NCBI RefSeq assembly: GCF_963676685.1
Contig: NC_092354.1
Coordinates: 28,396,001 to 28,460,000 of the forward strand
Source of the DNA: Mytilus edulis
Lineage: Eukaryota
Direction: 5' to 3'
DNA: 64,000 nucleotides
Every line of letters begins with the position of its first letter. Positions within the stretch are counted from its first letter, which is position 1. Shown here in pieces: positions 8,441 through 30,689 of this stretch. A model generated the notes under the pieces. It saw nothing but the letters and a program-made list of their open reading frames with translations. It did not search any database and was not told where the DNA came from. The position numbers and the translations under genes are program-made.

Positions 8441-9738
8441 TTATCTGTAGTTTTAACTTTTTCATACGACCGCAAAAATGGAAAATTTGAAAATACGGAT
8501 CTGTACTTCAAGTGAATATGCTGGGTCAAAAGGATAGCTGGCTGTGGAGTATGTGTATCTGGATAATAGTATAGTGCAAAATTATATGAATGTATTTAGT
8601 TTTGTACTTCCTGTGTGTGATGTGGTATATAGTGATATACTACATGTACCATATTTGCAATTTCGTAGGAATCTTAAGTGGTTAATATATTTTCCAAGTA
8701 TCCTTGTTTGAATTGCAGAACATAGAAGATTCGTTTATTCAATCAGTGCATACATGTAATAAAAGCATTTTGGTGATGAGCTGAATTAAACTAATGCAGC
8801 CTAATGACGTGAATAGTAAAGATAATGATCGTTTGTTAAAAAGTGAAGAAACGTTTTTATTGCTTGTTTTAAAATGACCTGTTTCTTTCAGACATATGTT
8901 TGTGGTGGTAGGTACTTTGATAATAAACATACAAATAAAATAAATTAAACATTACACTGTTTTCTATTTCTACATCGTCAATTGAGAACGTATGATCTAG
9001 TATTGTGTCATATTTCTCTTTTTGATTGGTTAATATACATGTACTACTCTTATCAACACAAATACAATATACTGTATGTCGGAAAGATGAGCAATTTTAT
9101 TTTCGATATCATCCTTCAAACACATATAATCCTATATTTTATCGTATACTTTTTTTTACCTTGTTTTTACATAATAAATAAGTCACGAAAAAACATAAAA
9201 ATAATAAAATCGTATGATTATGTGGAACTAAAAAGTCGATTCATGAAGTGCTTGTGATTGACGGAACACTAAGCATATGACAAGAGGAGGAAATAGGATG
9301 TTGCTATAGAGCTTCCTACACCAGGATTGATTGATTGTTAGTTGCTTAACGCTCAGTGGGAAATATTTCATGCGTATTCATTGATTGATTGATGGTTGCT
9401 TATCGTCCAGTGGCAAATATTTCATGCATATTCAGGGCGAGAACAAGTTCACAATAAATACTATAGGTAGGTCTTGTCATATTATAGGCCATAAGGGATG
9501 ATGGTCTTGGAAAATTTCTATTTTCAAATTTGGTCAAAACATTATCATTTTTTACTGCACCGCAAGTGAAAACACTTACGTGTCACAGATATAAAAGTAT
9601 CTTAAGATCGATGTAGGATAAAAAATTTAAATCAAATAGTTTGGGAGTGGGGGGGGGGGGGGGGGGTTAAAATTCTGCAAGTTTTGTATATCTAAAATCG
9701 ATTTTTACATATATCCCTATAGGTAAATAAATTTTTTT

Positions 9739-21590: not shown

Positions 21591-22231
21591 CCTTACTTCC
21601 AAAGGAGAAAATCTGTATGAAATTAGGATCCAGAAAATTTGACAGATAGCATGCTTTAGTTTTTCTTTATTCATCTTTTTTCTGTAGATTTGGGTCTTTT
21701 CAGTATGTATGTTATTACCAACGAAATTGCATTGTAAATGCATTGCTATCAGCTGCTTTGTATTATCTGACTATCAAATTCATTATTCCATTTTTTCTCT
21801 CATTAAAGTATATCGACGGAAACTTTGTCTGATTTCAAAATATAAACTTTAATTAATATGTTGAATATCGTTCGCTGTGTTATAGTCCCTTTGTGCTGAT
21901 GCAGCGTAAAACAAGCACCAGTCAGCACATTATGCAGTATCAAATTTGTATGTTCTTATTAAAGTATGTGAATAATAGTAGAAGTTGGCGGCTTCGATAG
22001 CACAACTACAAACGACGTGTCTTTAACATCTGCTGCATCTTTTTTTGACTTCCGGTTTGAATGGCTGACCACGGTTTTCCAGAGCTCCCGGAATAACACA
22101 ACAATTTATAGTTATGTACAAGTGTGAAAGTCACTCCAACCATTTAAATAATAATCAAAACGTTAATTAACATCTAGAAACTGTCAGATAATCTTTAGAG
22201 AACAAAATACAGAAGTTTTATACTTTGCAAT

Positions 22232-23458
22232 ATGAGTAATCAAAACAGTGAAAATCCGGACAATGACAAGATGGCCGGCTCCTATGTCTCGGCACTGAAA
22301 CAAAACAACAACAACTTTTCCAAAGATAATGCAGAACCTGACGCTGAATATTTCAACATCAAGCCTGTATTTATTCTTTAATCAGACATTTTCGGTAGCT
22401 CAAAACCAGATAAAAACAACTACCTAACACACACAGAACTGTTTAGATGTATTGACCTCACAATACCAGCTAGCCATCTAAACGGGCTTCAGAGGGTAAT
22501 TGGAGGCGTCTGGCGCATCTACCCAGACAATGAGGAAGACAGGAATACACTTGTGGTTAATTCAATTACAGTAAGGAAAAAACGCATTGAGGTATACCCT
22601 AGAAACCCAAGATATGTAGAAAAAGAGAGTCCAACTACTGTGAGAATAAGGATGAAAAATATACCACTGTCCGCCGATGATGGCCAATTGTTAAGATACC
22701 TGCAAAACTGGCACCTCAACATACTCAATTATCACAGAGAAAGATTAAGGATCGATGGGTTTATGACAAACTGTCAAACAGGTGACAGAATTTTTCATTG
22801 CGAACCCTTTCCACACACAATTCCAAGAAACGTAAAAATTGGCAAGTACCGTGGCCTCATATTATATAAAGGACAAATAAATGAGAACAACACAGACATT
22901 GAATGCTCCAAATGCTTGCAAAAAGGTCACAAAAAAACAAACTGTAGCAATGATTGGAAATGCAAGACATGTGGTGAAAACGGACACATCTCAAAGAACT
23001 GCATTTCTGAATTTGATAAAAACAGTCAAATTGCCTCAGAGGATTCAACAGAAGAGTCAGATGAAGGAAGTGAAAATGAATCGGAGAAAGATGAGGAGAT
23101 TGTTACATCTCAATCGACTGAAAATCTCTCACATACTGATGATACTCCACAGAATAAAGAAACCAGTAATATTACCGAACTTACCAAAGATACCAGCAAA
23201 GTAGATGTACCAACACAAAACATATCTAAGTCGGAGTCAGAGGCACCCATAGAACAGTCCCCTGAACAAAATCCCCCAAAAAAAAAGAAAAAGAAAAAAG
23301 TAACCAAATCCCAGGAAACAGCTCACGGTCCACTGGACAAATATCTTGAAACAACCCCGCAGCAAAAAACAGCAAAACGATCTGCAACCACACCAACCGA
23401 CACTTTGCATGACCGAGATATTGGCTCAACAAAACCAAGGACATCCGAAAACTCGTAA
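22232..23458 (+). pseudogene. ORF1 (gag-like RNA-binding protein with two CCHC zinc knuckles), one premature stop
   Basis: ATG at 22232 is in frame with the 22553-23458 ORF; single TAA at 22379-22381. Motifs GLQRVIGGVWRIYP, CSKCLQKGHKKTNC and CKTCGENGHISKNC; acidic and Lys-run tail. Confidence 0.9.
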
Positions 23459-23480
23459 CAATTACAATTAAAACACAACC

Positions 23481-24891
23481 ATGAATAATTGTAAATATTG
23501 TATTATATTTTTTACTTGTTTGTCTATTTTTCTTTTTATGCAAAAAAAAAATACAAAAAAAAATAAGTCAAAGTGTGATATAATTCTAGATTATATATAC
23601 CTTGAAATTAGTAATAAAATAAATATTAATCATGTGAATGAAAATGTAAATATATGTAATGAACTGTGTATAATATTGTATATTACGGAAAAGAACGATC
23701 TTCAAATAACCCCATTCCTCAAACCAATGAATAAATGTTTCTGCTCTCAATATGCGATCCATTACACAAGAGATGAGAACAAGTCAAGTTGTGATAAAAC
23801 AATCACTAAAACAGCCTTCCCTGTTTATGAAAAATACATACGAAAAATTGTATTGATAATCAAATTTATTAAGACGCTAATAATACATAATCAAAATACA
23901 ATAAACATATTAAATAAATATATTTTTGAACTGTTTATAGAAAATAGAATAGCTGTCAGAAATAAAAATAAAATAGATCCAACAAACTTAAAGTTTATAA
24001 AGAAGCTATCCTTGATAGATATCATTTCATTAATCCACATATATCTGAATTCAATTTTTCTGTTTATCTCGCTAACTATCCGCAACAACTTCTCAATGAT
24101 ACATCCTTGCTTTATAACAAATTATCCGTCCATTTTAATCCTTATAATAGTAGAACATATTCATAGTCCTATTTTACATCATGTAAACAACATTTGGATA
24201 TCACTTGTAATCCACACATCAGGAATATTTCAAATGCCCAATTTAATCCACAATATAAAAATCTTTTGTCAATCCATCGCAAGTCAATTACATGTATCAC
24301 CATCTAACATGTTCCTCTGTAAAAAAAATGCTAGTACTGATTCTGTATGTTCTGCAAACAATAACTACTCCAATTGTTTCCGTAAATACTGTAAACATGG
24401 TAAACGCCTACATCATGTACATAGTCCTACAATCTCATTATACTGTTAGATTAACAAACCTACAAATAAATAACAATGAAATTATTATACATGATACAAA
24501 AAAAATATATCTGCTTTTTTTTTATTATATATTTATAGTCTCAAATTATGGCAAAAAAGCAATAGTAAAATCTAATGTATGGAGACAATTAAATGAAAAT
24601 ATGTGTTTAAATACATGTATGAATGCTTATATATATTTGTGTTGTTATGTCTCATTTTCTTCCATGAACATTGTGAAGTATGTGCACATATTTTGTTTAC
24701 CAGTACTGTATATATTTAAATCACAAATAATCATGTACATGTACAAATGTTTTTATAGTATACTGTGTAACTTTAAAACCAAACATTTAATGAAAGTACT
24801 TTGTGAATATGATGTGAAACAAATATGTCTCCTTGTAAATGTAGTTTTGATATCAACTACACATATAAACTCTAAATTAAACAATGGGTGA
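23481..24891 (+). CDS. Putative third ORF of the Tx1 element: 322-aa and 199-aa overlapping frames, hydrophobic and Cys-rich, function unknown
   Basis: ATG lies 22 nt after the ORF1 stop; 969 nt stay open in very AT-rich DNA. The second frame overlaps across an A-run (~24321-24328) and stops 8 nt into ORF2 (ATGGGTGA). Confidence 0.5.
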
Positions 24892-27800
24892 AAATCTTCA
24901 TATAATATCAATAAACTGTCAAGGTTTAGGCCAAAAAAACAAAAGAGAAAGATTACAATTATGGACAAAAAATCAAAAATGTAACATTCTTTTCATTCAA
25001 GAGTCACATTTTATAGAAAATATTGAACAAACAATAAATAAAGAGTTTGATGGCAAAATGTTTCATAGTTATGGTAACACACAATCAAGAGGTGTTTCAA
25101 TCTTTGTCAAAAACAATTTAAAATGTAAAACAATAAACGAAATAAAAGATAATGAAGGTAGAATAATTTTGATAAACAGAGAAAAAAATGACAATATTTT
25201 TACTCTAATAAATGTTTATGCTCCAAATCTACACAAAAATAGAAACAAATTTTTCAAAAAGGTTCAAAATATGATTGAAAACAAGCGTTTGGGTATCCTT
25301 ATATTAGGAGGTGATATGAACGAAACTCTCTCAATTAATGATAGAAAAACTAATATCATCCCAAGAAACTACAAACCAGTAAATAGCTTAAAAAAACTAA
25401 TAAAGAAAAATAACTTAACAGATATATGGAGAGAACTTAATCCAAATACTAGTCAATTCACATGGAGAAGGAAAAATGAAACAAACATAGCGAGCAGAAT
25501 TGACTTCTTCTTGATTAGTCCCGATATAAGACCGCATGTTATAAAAGCAGATATTAGACCTGCAATGATCTCATACACTGATCACCAAGCCATTTCTTTA
25601 CAAGTTAGACAAAATTCAGAAGAAAGAGGCAGGGGTTTCTTTAAAATTAACAATAGTATACTTAAAGAGCAAAAATATATTGACCTAATAAATGATTTAA
25701 TCAAAAATTATAAAGTACAAATACTCACCAAAAATTTAAAAACACTCTGGGATATGTTTAAATCAGAGCTAAGAACTGCAACTCTTACTTACTGCAAACA
25801 AAGATCATCTGAAAATAAAAATGATATAAAAAATTTAGAAATAAAATTAAGAAAACTAAATGAGAAAACAAATGCAAGCCAAATTATAAAAAACATTGAA
25901 AATGAACTTGAACACCTCTATTTAAATAAAGTTAAAGGTGCACAAATAAATTACGCTGTTAAATGTAGATACTAAACTCATTGCTTATGCAATAGCCCAG
26001 CGCTTAAAACCAATACTGCTGAAAATAATTCATGGAGATCAAAATGGGTATATCAAAAATAGATATATTGGTTTTAATATACGCCAAATCCAAGACATTA
26101 TAGACTATGCTGAAACTTTTAACATAGATGGTGCATTACTATTTATTGATTTTTCAAAAGCTTTTGATTCGCTTGAATGGGACTTTATGTATGAAGCCCT
26201 TATAAAATTTGGTCTACCAAACTCTTTTATTAAATGGGTTAAAACATTATATAAGAATATTAAAGGCTGCATGCTAAATAATGGGTGGATTTCAGAAACT
26301 TACAATGTATCTCGCGGGATACGTCAAGGCTGTCCGTGCAGCTCTCTAATTTTCACAAGTCTGCCTGTCCAGAATAATGTCAATTTATGTGAATTGTTTT
26401 TTATGAATATTGGTTACATTTATTGTTTCGTTATCTGATAGTTATCAAAGGTATCAGGATTATAAGTTAGTACGCCAGACGCGCGTTTCGTCTACATTAG
26501 ACTCATCAGTGTCGCTCATGTCAAAATATTTATTAAGCCAAACAAGTACGAAGTTGAAGAGCATTGAGGATCCAAGCAGTAGAAATTCTTGCATGCAAAA
26601 TAAGACAAGATACTGGTATTAAGGGATTTCAAATAAAATTAGATTCCAAAACACATAGTCTGAAAATCTCACAATTAGCCAATGACACAACTCTTTTTTT
26701 TTAAATGCAAGCAAGAAATTAGCTATGCTCTGAATATTATTGAAATATTTGGAACGCTCTCAGGTCTTAAACTCAACCGATCGAAAACAGAAGGAATATG
26801 GCTAGGCAGACTAAAAAGCTGTAAAGATAAATATGAAGACATTAACTGGAATAAAGAACCTATTAAAAGCCTAGGTGTATACTTTGGACTTAATAAAAAT
26901 GAATGTGACAAATTAAATACTGAAAAAATTCTAAGAAAGTCTCAAGATACAATCAATAGCTGGAACAGAAGAAATCTCACAATGATAGGTAGAATAACAG
27001 TAATTAAATCTCTCATCTTACCAAATTTAACTTTCTTGGCATCAGTAACAACCATTTCCAAAGAATTTTTAAATGAATTTAAAAAATTGATTTACAACTT
27101 CATCTGGGGTAATAAAAAAGAAAAAGTTAAAAGAATCACGCTATGTAAAGATTACTTGGAAGGAGGCCTTAAAATGATCAACATTGATGATTTTTTATCA
27201 GCTATACAATTATCCTAGGTCAAACGTTTAACATCAACACAATTTGCAAACTGGAAAGTCATTCCCCTTTTCTTTTTCAATAAATTTGGAGAAAACTTTT
27301 CTTTATTTAACATGAATCCAGGTAGCATAAAAGCAATCCCAAAACTCAGTAAAACAATCCCTCTTTTCTATTTAGAAATAGTGAAAAGTTGGTTTAAGAT
27401 AAAAAAAAATATCTCTGAAATAAAAACCAACAGTACAAATTGTATTAATATAAGACAACAATACATATGGGGCAATAAACATATAAAATTTCAAAACAAA
27501 TGTTTAATATTCTCACATTGGATAACCAATGGAATACTATTTATTAATGATATAATAGATGAAGCAGGAAATATATCACAAAAGGCAGTATTAGATAAAT
27601 TGACCCTCAAATCCAACTGGATATCAGAACTATCGAGAATAAGAGCTGCAATACAAAAAAAATGGCAAATGATAATGAAATCAGATAACTCGCGCAATAC
27701 TCAAGTTAAAACAGATAAAAGGCTATACTTAAAAACACAAAATAATACAAAATTGATCAGAATTGAAAACCTTCCATCAAAAGAAATTTATAAAAGTATT

Positions 27801-28379
27801 AGCTCATGTTATATACTGGAAAAACACCAATTGGCTTTCTTAAATGGAAAACACAATTAGAATTAGATTCATCAAGCCATTTGTACAAAATGCTGAACTT
27901 TATATTCAATAGTTTACAAGTAAACACACTAAAAATATTCAGATGGAAGTTACTTCATTATATACTTCCTTGTAAACAACTATTGTACACCTGGCATCTG
28001 AAAAATGATGACCAGTGCCATATTTGAAACCAATTAGAAAACTATGAACATTTTTTCATTTCATGCAAATACTTTAAAAAACTTTTGGAAAAAGGTCAAA
28101 ATACTCCTTGATAAAATAAAAATGGGAACACACATAATCACCTTCAAAAATCTAATACTAGGCTACAAAATATATGATAAAAATTATTATGACATTAATC
28201 TATTTCTCACTGTAATATTATTCTCTATTCATAAATCTACATATGCATCAGAGTATAAACTAAACAATGTTGATGTCTATAGAATATTTAAAACAGAATT
28301 TAAACAACATTATGAAAACATGAAACTTCTTGATAAAACAACAAGCAGATTTTTGAATGATGTTTATAAAAAAATATAA
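24884..28379 (+). pseudogene. ORF2 (APE endonuclease + reverse transcriptase + C-terminal zinc-binding region), disrupted
   Basis: Endonuclease motifs SINCQGL, IQESH, NVYAPN, GGDMN, SRIDFF, TDH. Deletion at ~25950 joins KGAQI to ITLLNVDTK. RT motifs IDFSKAFDSLEW and RGIRQGCP. Insertion at 26355-26575. Catalytic motif reads LAND instead of xADD (~26676-26687). Downstream frameshifts and stops. Confidence 0.95.
26472..26515 (-). ncRNA. Type I hammerhead ribozyme in a retrozyme fragment inserted in ORF2
   Basis: Reverse complement reads GCGACA-CTGATGA-GTCT(AATGT)AGAC-GAAA-CGCGC-GTC-TGGCGT. Confidence 0.75.
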
Positions 28380-30689
28380 GAACCAAAATGTATTATTGCG
28401 CATGATCATTCTTCTGTATTACTATATATATCATGTAGAAAAACTCAAATGTAAACAAATGTATTATTTTAAGATGTTTAATGTGACGCATGGTCAATGT
28501 TTACCTGTAGGACATGATTTTTGACCCGTACTGTCTACGGTCTAATTACTAGAAAATATCTAATATTTTAGGATAAAAAAAAATCCTTCTTGATCAATTT
28601 ATCATAAATCATGGGAATATAACAAAACTCACATTTAGAAATACTCAATTTAGATCCTTTGTTCATGAAATCATTCCACGTGTTATCCTTCAATCATTCG
28701 ATCATCTCAATTTTCACGAGATTATGCCGATCAAGGTTAAGGGTCAATGATTAAATTATAACCAACATCGGATAATGAATAGTACAACTTCCGTATTTAC
28801 GTTACATTATGATGACCTCCACAGAACTAAGAACTCAGACAAATTGTTAAAATCAATGTATTGTATTTATAATAACTAATCATAATTAATATATATATAT
28901 ATACCTATAAATTTACTGTATAATCTCCCTGGTTAAACAGTAACTAATTCACAGGGATACCCGGCTGAATGCTGTGAGTCGAGTAATTTGTTAAACAGCA
29001 AAGAAATGTGCAATAAAAGATTTATCGTTTAAAAAAAAAAAAAAAAAAAAAACATCTGCTGCATCGTCCATTTCTATATCTGCTTTCCCTTGTGTAAATG
29101 TACCTGATGCATGGTTTTTCAAGGTGAATGAATCCTCCTGTCTCAAACAAGTTTAGATATTTAAAATCTGACAGGCCTTCCGGAGGGAAAACCCTAAAGA
29201 CCTAGGTTAAATTGTCTATCTAAATGATTGTAGTATACGCGGTAGAGGTTAATTAACGCGAGTACAATGTCAGCATTTTCCTTTTCCGTTGATGTTTTTT
29301 GTGGCACATCCAAACACAAACCGGGAATAACAGCCTAGAATGTTGCAGACGTAATCAAGTCCTTTCTATAAATAAGGCAGTTTCTGCAAGTCTGTCCGTC
29401 ATGGACCATTTCGGTAATGGCTGGAATTGGCCTTCTAGTCCTTGTGTTAGGAAGTTCAACAGCTGCATTACAGGTAGAGCAGGTAATTTCATTTTAAAAT
29501 ATGATTCTTATACTCTCTTCATGCACGGAAAACATCATGTCTTAGTGTCTCATTTATAGTATCATTTTGTCTCTCACCTAAAAACTTAAGTATAATCGAT
29601 CAAATGTCTCATATGTTTATGGCTCTTTTACAAGATAGGACTTATTCCCAATTCGCTATATTTTTCTGCGTGCCATTTGTACTTCTGCAAATAAATATCG
29701 AGTTGAACATTAAATTAAGGCTTGGCAAAGATTGAGTTTGAATAAAATTATCGATACAAAATGAAAATTAACCTCTTTCAACTGTTTTGGCAATGATGGT
29801 ATACGCCGATGGTCCTCTCGTGTATCGGGTCTTCTGTATCTTTGCTTCCCCTGGTCCTTTCACTTTAGCATTTCTATTGCCAATCCACATCTTAAATTAT
29901 ATAAAAGTATCAAGTAAATAATTAATGTACTTAAAATTTTACCCTTTTTTACTCTTACATTCCCTTATAAAGATGATGTTTCTTATTGTATCATAATAAA
30001 CCACCAACAAAGTATATTTTGTAACTGGAACAAGGCAGATATCTGTGTAGCACTCAGAACAAGACAACCTCTCAGCAACACTCTTAATGGCATCATAACA
30101 GTTTCTGCTGGTGTTTTTCATCCTTCTTTCATATGCCAGCTCCAAGATTTCTTTTTCTCCATTCAGAAAATCAATTCAATTGTTTTTCTGTGACATTCAC
30201 ATTCATAAAAGAAAAAAAATGTCAATGCAGAAAGTTATGTGTTATGTTTGCAGAAATTTAAATTATATTTTAGACAACACAACACGATTTTTTTCGTCTT
30301 TGGCCAAAGTTTATTTATTTCAATTCGAGCTTCACTGGCATCGCCAAACTCTTATTTCAGACTTGCAATAGAAAATAGAAAATGCGCAAACAAGTTTTGA
30401 CATTTTAAATCTGACAGGCCTTCCGGAGGGAAATTTACATTTTGCTGTTGTAAAACAACGTTAATTTGATTGTCTAAGACAGCAACTCGATGCTTAGTTA
30501 CAGACTTCTCTAGATTTTTTCTTATTATTCATAAGACAGACTTCGTAAAAGAGGCTTATTTATCAATTAAAGATTTTAATACAAGAAGAGCTATATGTAT
30601 TATGAGAATAGGTGCTCACTGCCGGTCGGGAGAAGACCAAGTGACCATATTTCTATACGGGTGACATTTATTTGTGTCCTGGCAATATC

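Follow-up and report, generated by a model that had tools for sequence, protein, structure and literature searches.

The window, that is, the whole 64,000-nucleotide stretch of the Mytilus edulis genome analysed here, contains a full-length but decayed L1/Tx1-type LINE at 22040..29052 on the plus strand, as identified from its sequence and from Pfam matches to EN, RT and zf-CCHC. The 3′ end carries a poly(A) tail, and a target-site duplication of 14-15 bp lies at about 22026-22039 and 29052-29065. The ORF1 and ORF2 domains, the poly(A) tail and the target-site duplication together point to a non-LTR retrotransposon of the L1/Tx1 group. The features are as follows.

22232..23458, plus strand: ORF1 (zinc knuckle), broken in the window copy by a TAA at 22379-22381
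23481..24891, plus strand: middle frame (candidate “bridge”) of about 469 codons where intact; in the window copy, it is divided into frames of 322 and 199 codons
23573..23600, plus strand: sense RNA hairpin with a bulged A and a 5-nt loop, identified by covariation and model matches, reading as the pseudo-motif CD-I-DY
24459..24490, minus strand: antisense splice acceptor (polypyrimidine + AG), transferred to the window from the L061 joint 4568->5838 (CT..AC)
24884..24891, plus strand: ATGGGTGA overlap, with the ORF2 start codon within the last codons of the middle frame (from the sequence)
24884..28379, plus strand: ORF2 (AP endonuclease, reverse transcriptase), broken in the window copy
25729..25808, minus strand: internal antisense exon of 80 nt within ORF2, followed by a GTGAGT donor at 25728-25723
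28627..28633, minus strand: antisense donor GTGAGT at the end of the 3′UTR exon; at L061 5921, the loose ends of reads correspond to the 3′UTR

ORF1, which ends with the TAA at 23456-23458, contains a Tx1-like CCHC zinc knuckle (PF00098, E 2.5e-04), and ORF2 contains an AP endonuclease (PF03372, E 3.4e-08) and a reverse transcriptase (PF00078, E 1.5e-18). In relatives, both are intact, ORF1 with 418-419 codons (L002, L018 and L020) and ORF2 with 1,260-1,290 codons. In the window copy, ORF1 has its internal stop, and ORF2 is interrupted by stops and frameshifts, has a deletion near 25950 and has gained an insertion at about 26357-26587; this copy is dead. The insertion, of about 230 bp, splits the reverse transcriptase region and includes a hammerhead type I match at 26472-26512 on the minus strand (25.8 bits, E 0.006, under the Rfam gathering score). 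Between L002 and L018, dS is about 1.1 in ORF1 as compared to 0.38 in the 5′ half of ORF2, which suggests either the exchange of ORF1 by recombination or constraint on the synonymous sites of ORF2.

Two sense frames tile the spacer between ORF1 and ORF2, in agreement with the preliminary description: 23481-24449 (322 aa), whose ATG lies 22 nt past the ORF1 stop, and 24259-24891 (199 aa from the ATG at 24292). The stop of the second frame overlaps the ORF2 ATG at 24884 within ATGGGTGA; it is not an extension of ORF2, since a TAA at 24878-24880 closes ORF2's own frame. The view that so long a frame is beyond chance was upheld, as no frame of 322 codons arose in 25,000 spacers simulated with Markov models (orders 0-4, 5,000 each); the longest simulated frame had 201 codons, and one spacer reached 199. 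The loss of one A had been predicted to fuse the two frames, and the 98%-identical copy L002/L061 indeed has a single 472-codon frame, the difference inside the middle ORF being one extra A in the window at about 24321.

A DNA search of the genome yielded 47 matches at 30 loci. One intact ORF, which the preliminary description had proposed to test for in a family consensus, was found as a single frame of 464-472 codons in four of the 30 loci: L002 and L003 (98%), and L018 and L021 (about 70%). These four copies span two subfamilies that are about 70% alike. In a search with the endonuclease, 150 of 1,795 candidates were scored and 60 loci were taken, which lean to young copies because the selection favoured long open ORF2 frames. 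The 60 loci represent 25 ORF2-defined families at 95% identity, with endonuclease regions 41-95% identical between families, and the ORF2 tree was built from elements of the Mytilus edulis genome alone. In 20 of the 25 families, an open frame of 203-476 codons spans 80% or more of the spacer in one or more copies, with its stop between −52 and +38 nt from the ORF2 AUG, although these counts are not independent, because the families have common ancestry. The spacers of these 20 families thus depart from the classic two-ORF plan with a non-coding spacer. The other five families are represented by broken or truncated copies, including L112, whose open spacer frame is fused to ORF2 through a deletion. 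As a control, the longest sense frame measures 30-57 codons in 12 3′UTRs of similar GC content.

The middle frame begins 19-117 nt past ORF1 (19 families). Its stop is located at +8, in an ATGnnTRA overlap, in seven of the 20 representatives, and 34-52 nt upstream of the ORF2 AUG in four, which is looser than strict stop-start coupling. The UGGGA motif (TURBS motif 1) occurs within 120 nt of the ORF2 AUG in none of the 20. In L089-L092, the frame is split into 49-53 codons, a stop, and then 311-329 codons starting 30 nt later; the mid-frame stop is present in all four copies, and the arrangement is a two-step relay to ORF2. We rejected L066-L069 as an active variant with a shortened frame, as L067 and L068 have only an A-run slip in common and no private substitution.

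How is this frame maintained? The sister families are free of frequent stops and frame-breaking indels, the pattern that the preliminary description had named as evidence against the frame. In codon-blind alignments of eight family pairs, 54 of the 66 indels between families are multiples of 3 (19 of 19 for L061-L063). Indels common to at least three copies are in frame in all ten cases, while none of nine is a multiple of 3 in the 3′UTR control. At the L061-L063 divergence, neutral drift is expected to produce about 18 stops, with a minimum of 4 in 5,000 simulations.

The amino acids behave differently from the frame. The maximum-likelihood omega of the middle frame is 0.90 over 2,354 codons (LRT against 1, 1.6; bootstrap 0.74-1.10); the off-frames give 0.99 and ORF2 gives 0.12. 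The bootstrap interval of the middle frame gives no indication of purifying selection on amino acids. The counting method between the two subfamilies gives an omega of 0.74-0.80 because of transition bias. Substitutions are spread over the codon positions as 113/117/109. Among substitutions in common within two groups of 13 and 11 copies, the nonsynonymous:synonymous counts in the spacer are 104:41 and 87:28, versus 21:21 and 18:39 in ORF2; the spacer ratio is that of singletons, unlike both ORF1 and ORF2. Moreover, changes that keep hydrophobicity are not favoured in the middle frame (LRT 0.5, versus 29.3 in ORF2). The frame is under selection and the protein is not; its amino acids drift neutrally.

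An omega near 1 could also arise where purifying and positive selection are combined, as would be the case if the whole 200-480-aa product were a fast-evolving membrane protein (a fusogen, an env-like or an anti-host protein). We regard this as very improbable. The frame is maintained over the long term, each sequence has several hydrophobic windows, and there are small departures from the off-frames (an A bias at the first codon position and a mild Asp/Glu excess), all of which fit a protein. However, an omega of 0.90-0.93 with no class bias and the even spread over codon positions do not. The amino-acid composition tracks that of the off-frames, and the richness in Cys and hydrophobic residues, read earlier as a protein signal, carries less weight, as it equals that of the two off-frames (Cys 4.5% versus 4.1%). 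Across frames of 203-476 codons we found no conserved hydrophobic pattern, and one family's frame is split by a fixed stop. BLAST between distant families aligns only brief segments with low scores, most of them within the first ~50 residues. Neither half of the middle frame matches any Pfam family, and a protein database search gave no hit at E 1e-3 among 6,853 candidates of near lengths only. An ESM Atlas search, with no usable match, and AlphaFold on a 4-sequence alignment, with a mean pLDDT of 29.9, are uninformative either way. The whole-protein explanation is largely contradicted; of the accessory membrane protein suggested earlier, the full-length product is unsupported, and the N-terminal ~25 residues may serve as a signal anchor.

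The N-terminal part of the middle frame contains the block “ECD-I-D-I”, which is a covarying sense RNA hairpin rather than a protein motif. The hairpin lies 113-233 nt downstream of the ORF1 stop. Across ten families, 90% of the cells pair and 8 of the 14 pairs have changes on both sides; none of 500 shuffles matches this, in a control that is generous because the structure was derived from the same sequences and the families are related. G-U pairs are tolerated, a pointer that the hairpin acts on the sense strand. By eye, both alternative frames of a typical hairpin sequence contain stops, so that its reading frame is fixed. A strict hairpin pattern has 37 matches genome-wide versus 0 in the reversed control, and all 30 matches that were fetched lie in these spacers. 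The covariance model locates the hairpin in two large branches of the tree, and finds none in L098-L112 and L118-L120. A second match to the model, at 9104-9157 on the minus strand of the window (35 bits), is preceded by U-rich and A-rich tracts and is perhaps a decayed spacer fragment from another family. A −1 frameshift signal at the A-run ahead of the hairpin was considered by eye; the spacing varies.

Could this N-terminal module alone matter as a protein? The signal anchor and the basic residues would engage SRP, the hairpin would act as a pause, and the RNA would be tethered to the ER or nuclear envelope, with the remaining frame a free bridge. Consistent with this, the N-terminus is more hydrophobic than the remaining frame (mean rank 0.12; Fisher p 2e-6 against shuffled first 90 nt), and most families show a hydrophobic stretch after the first Met, with at least three Lys/Arg behind it in 9 of 19. 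The module forms its own ORF of 49-53 codons in L089-L092 and is doubled in L077-L080. Omega is 0.63 over the first 25 codons (198 codons compared) and 0.79, which is not significant, over the first 50. On the other hand, T is raised at all codon positions of the stretch (0.45/0.53/0.50), and the hydrophobic gain over a same-base shuffle is small (z 0.53, versus 0.17 elsewhere). A 19-residue hydropathy of 1.6 is reached in only 9 of 19 families, and the segments of L082 and L085 include Asp/Glu. As RNA, the U-rich tract is able to pair with the A-rich one (z below −2 in 4 of 17), and the conserved “motif” is the hairpin. The segment is thus hydrophobic but short, and the U-rich tract largely explains its hydrophobicity. 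In the window, the signal-anchor start proposed earlier is a weaker point, with a 19-residue Kyte-Doolittle value of only 1.47, measured in L061, whose N-terminal sequence is identical. FAST-type small fusogens have a short hydrophobic segment followed by basic residues, and the middle frame resembles them in this respect; unlike them, it has no Gly2 in 20 sequences, an N-terminal part of about 5 residues, weak hydrophobicity and no amino-acid constraint. Overall, we consider a role of the module as a protein unlikely, although it deserves more credence than the whole-protein explanation.

The spacer also participates in a spliced antisense RNA. Five runs of raw RNA reads, drawn from two studies by species label and covered to 6-19% each, were placed on two families at low depth (50-154 reads per run). 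In three runs of one study, low-depth reads cover ORF1, the spacer and ORF2, and are mostly sense if the library is of the usual stranded type. On L061, ten reads from two runs skip 1,269 nt with CT..AC ends; on L069, reads in four of four runs (1, 1, 1 and 11) skip 1,629 nt with antisense GT..AG ends. Loose read ends show that the L063/L064 family has the same joint and that the 80-nt ORF2 exon is linked to the 3′UTR. The antisense RNA, seen in three families, runs from the 3′UTR to 80 nt of ORF2 and then to the spacer, where the acceptor at 24459..24490 (minus strand) opens the terminal exon, which runs toward lower coordinates. All donors and acceptors are canonical (GT-AG introns). The recurring string “LKI[DE]N” in the middle frame is this antisense splice acceptor, not a protein motif. 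An antisense protein was rejected, as the longest antisense frame has 76 codons in the window spacer, and the longest ORF in the joined RNA has 54. The spacer was also rejected as a sense intron: it is kept in all copies, and no sense GT-AG joint is listed at this low depth. Non-canonical joints (AA..AT and GT..TA) are probably deleted genomic copies.

The antisense splice sites are conserved. In 9 of 20 families, which all belong to one clade, the ORF2 donor falls in a single alignment column and uses rare Leu/Thr codons; synonymous resampling yields at most five families in 300 draws. Of 17 3′UTRs, 12 have G|GTRAG on the antisense strand and one has it on the sense strand (the null gives a mean of 1.9 and at most 7). 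Acceptor-like sites in the spacers number 26 antisense and 10 sense, a rough comparison, as the strict acceptor rule misses three read-supported spacer acceptors. Host read-through into particular copies is a possible source of the antisense reads, but would leave the conserved splice sites unexplained. In runs X23 and X24 on L061 and in run X23 on L069, the reads lie nearly all on the antisense exons, and the antisense RNA may be dominant in some samples. At L061:2306-2308, many RNA reads stop and continue into differing loose sequences; this copy has no 5′UTR, and its upstream flank is another repeat.

In a test of 11 motifs chosen after the fact, 21 kb of middle frames contain 27 copies of GTAAACA, which we take to be a Fox-like motif (1.27 per kb, versus 0.4 in the flanks, and 2.4-3.6 times the nulls). 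TGACCY is above its nulls, though no denser than in the flanks. An enhancer content of the spacer is thus possible, as a lead only. The spacers of L101, L105, L107, L110, L112 and L118 contain a conserved block of repeated TGACC half-sites, which adjoins GTAAACA in three of the six and reads “VT..T.I.T” in frame; the block is likely a DNA or RNA motif. Rfam gave no match in the spacer in a scan of the element, no tRNA was found, and a metagenome scan with ORF2 yielded a single 1.2-kb contig, which lacks the spacer.

Taken together, the middle ORF probably serves as a translated bridge, by which ribosomes would cross a regulatory spacer and reach ORF2. In-frame indels, the lack of stops where about 18 are expected, the placement of the stop at the AUG of ORF2 and the neutral drift of the amino acids are all consistent with a bridge. 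The preliminary suggestion that the frame stays open so that ribosomes can reach ORF2 agrees with all of the tests, which address the sequence; translation of the middle frame and re-initiation at ORF2 would be the means. First, ribosomes would re-initiate 19-117 nt downstream of ORF1. Second, they would translate the spacer frame and halt at the ORF2 AUG, where some would restart; the protein product would be a by-product. The spacer itself would be retained for roles at the RNA or DNA level: the hairpin, the antisense exon and possibly enhancer-like motifs. A spacer of 0.6-1.4 kb would persist only if it is translatable, because L1 ORF2 needs a completed upstream ORF. The antisense RNA would begin in the element's own 3′UTR and may restrain expression of the element. 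Re-initiation in two steps is usually inefficient when it follows long ORFs, which counts against the bridge. A joint reading, in which a translation-only gene is combined with a signal-anchor/hairpin module that docks the RNA at the ER before ORF2 and with a throttling antisense RNA, strikes us as doubtful.

Alternatively, an IRES in the spacer could drive ORF2, with the frame open for another reason, such as ribosome traffic shielding the RNA from decay or small-RNA processing. IRES predictions exist for long vertebrate L1 spacers, according to the accessible text of PMC5381506, and some stops lie up to 52 nt upstream of the ORF2 AUG. In contrast, the spacer body has no excess structure (mean z −0.29, versus −0.30 for ORF1, in 12 families), and the stops cluster at the ORF2 AUG, most often in an overlap with it, a placement that an IRES does not need. 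We therefore give the IRES the least credence of all the readings considered.

The bridge has partial parallels in known systems. Human L1 is likewise a bicistronic APE/RT LINE, and its ORF2 needs the completion of some upstream ORF, not necessarily ORF1 (PMC4091050, in excerpt), the identity of that ORF being immaterial; termination-reinitiation is credited to Alisch 2006 in the accessible parts of PMC4091050 and PMC5972666. Unlike the human spacer of 63 nt with no ORF, the Mytilus clade has 0.6-1.4 kb of open frame ending at the ORF2 AUG. Long L1 spacers of fish, frog, lizard clade 2 and basal mammals are treated as non-coding in the available portion of PMC5381506; in the megabat L1, the long spacer is inhibitory, and AUG removal lowers retrotransposition further (PMC4072516, in excerpt). 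As excerpted in these two sources, such spacers are similarly often AT-rich, 257-1,032 bp long, accompanied by a short 5′UTR and persistent for unexplained reasons, but they are described as non-coding with a possible IRES, and the excerpts name none of the three features found in the Mytilus clade, namely an open frame, a hairpin and an antisense exon. SART1, also a non-LTR element, has overlapping stop and start codons at ORF2, and its UAAUG stop-start coupling drives ORF2 (review PMC5972666, in part); there ORF1 is coupled directly to ORF2 and a downstream structure is needed, whereas a third, sequence-free frame intervenes in the Mytilus clade. The stop positions of −52 to +38 nt from the AUG resemble the TURBS-type reinitiation of caliciviruses, from which the clade differs in having no UGGGA within 120 nt of the AUG in the 20 representatives. 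Multi-intron antisense transcripts are known from HeT-A and TART, those of HeT-A being non-coding with a 3′UTR promoter (PMC2615633 and PMC1636488, in their accessible parts). The Mytilus RNA is similarly spliced and antisense, with GT-AG introns and no long ORF; unlike the telomeric Drosophila elements, it belongs to a dispersed L1/Tx1-type clade, with splice sites synonymously constrained in ORF2 and present also in the spacer frame. Searches of the open literature gave no description of such a frame, and the accessible portions of PMC5381506, PMC5203782, PMC11203168, PMC5405496 and PMC10294476 make no mention of one; Repbase, Dfam, subscription journals and supplements, which were outside the search, may have it.

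The middle frame is real, clade-wide and unusual, and probably represents translational coupling of the L1 type, not a new membrane protein. Long and conserved, yet probably no protein gene, this ORF is a warning for annotation. Conserved spliced antisense RNA, described for telomeric elements of Drosophila, now extends to an L1/Tx1-type clade that is dispersed. To judge from the accessible text of PMC5381506 and PMC4072516, the translation of ORF2 behind a long L1 spacer has yet to be explained, and the Mytilus clade offers a natural experiment, in which dozens of families keep the frame and not the protein, and which predicts which mutations would kill retrotransposition.
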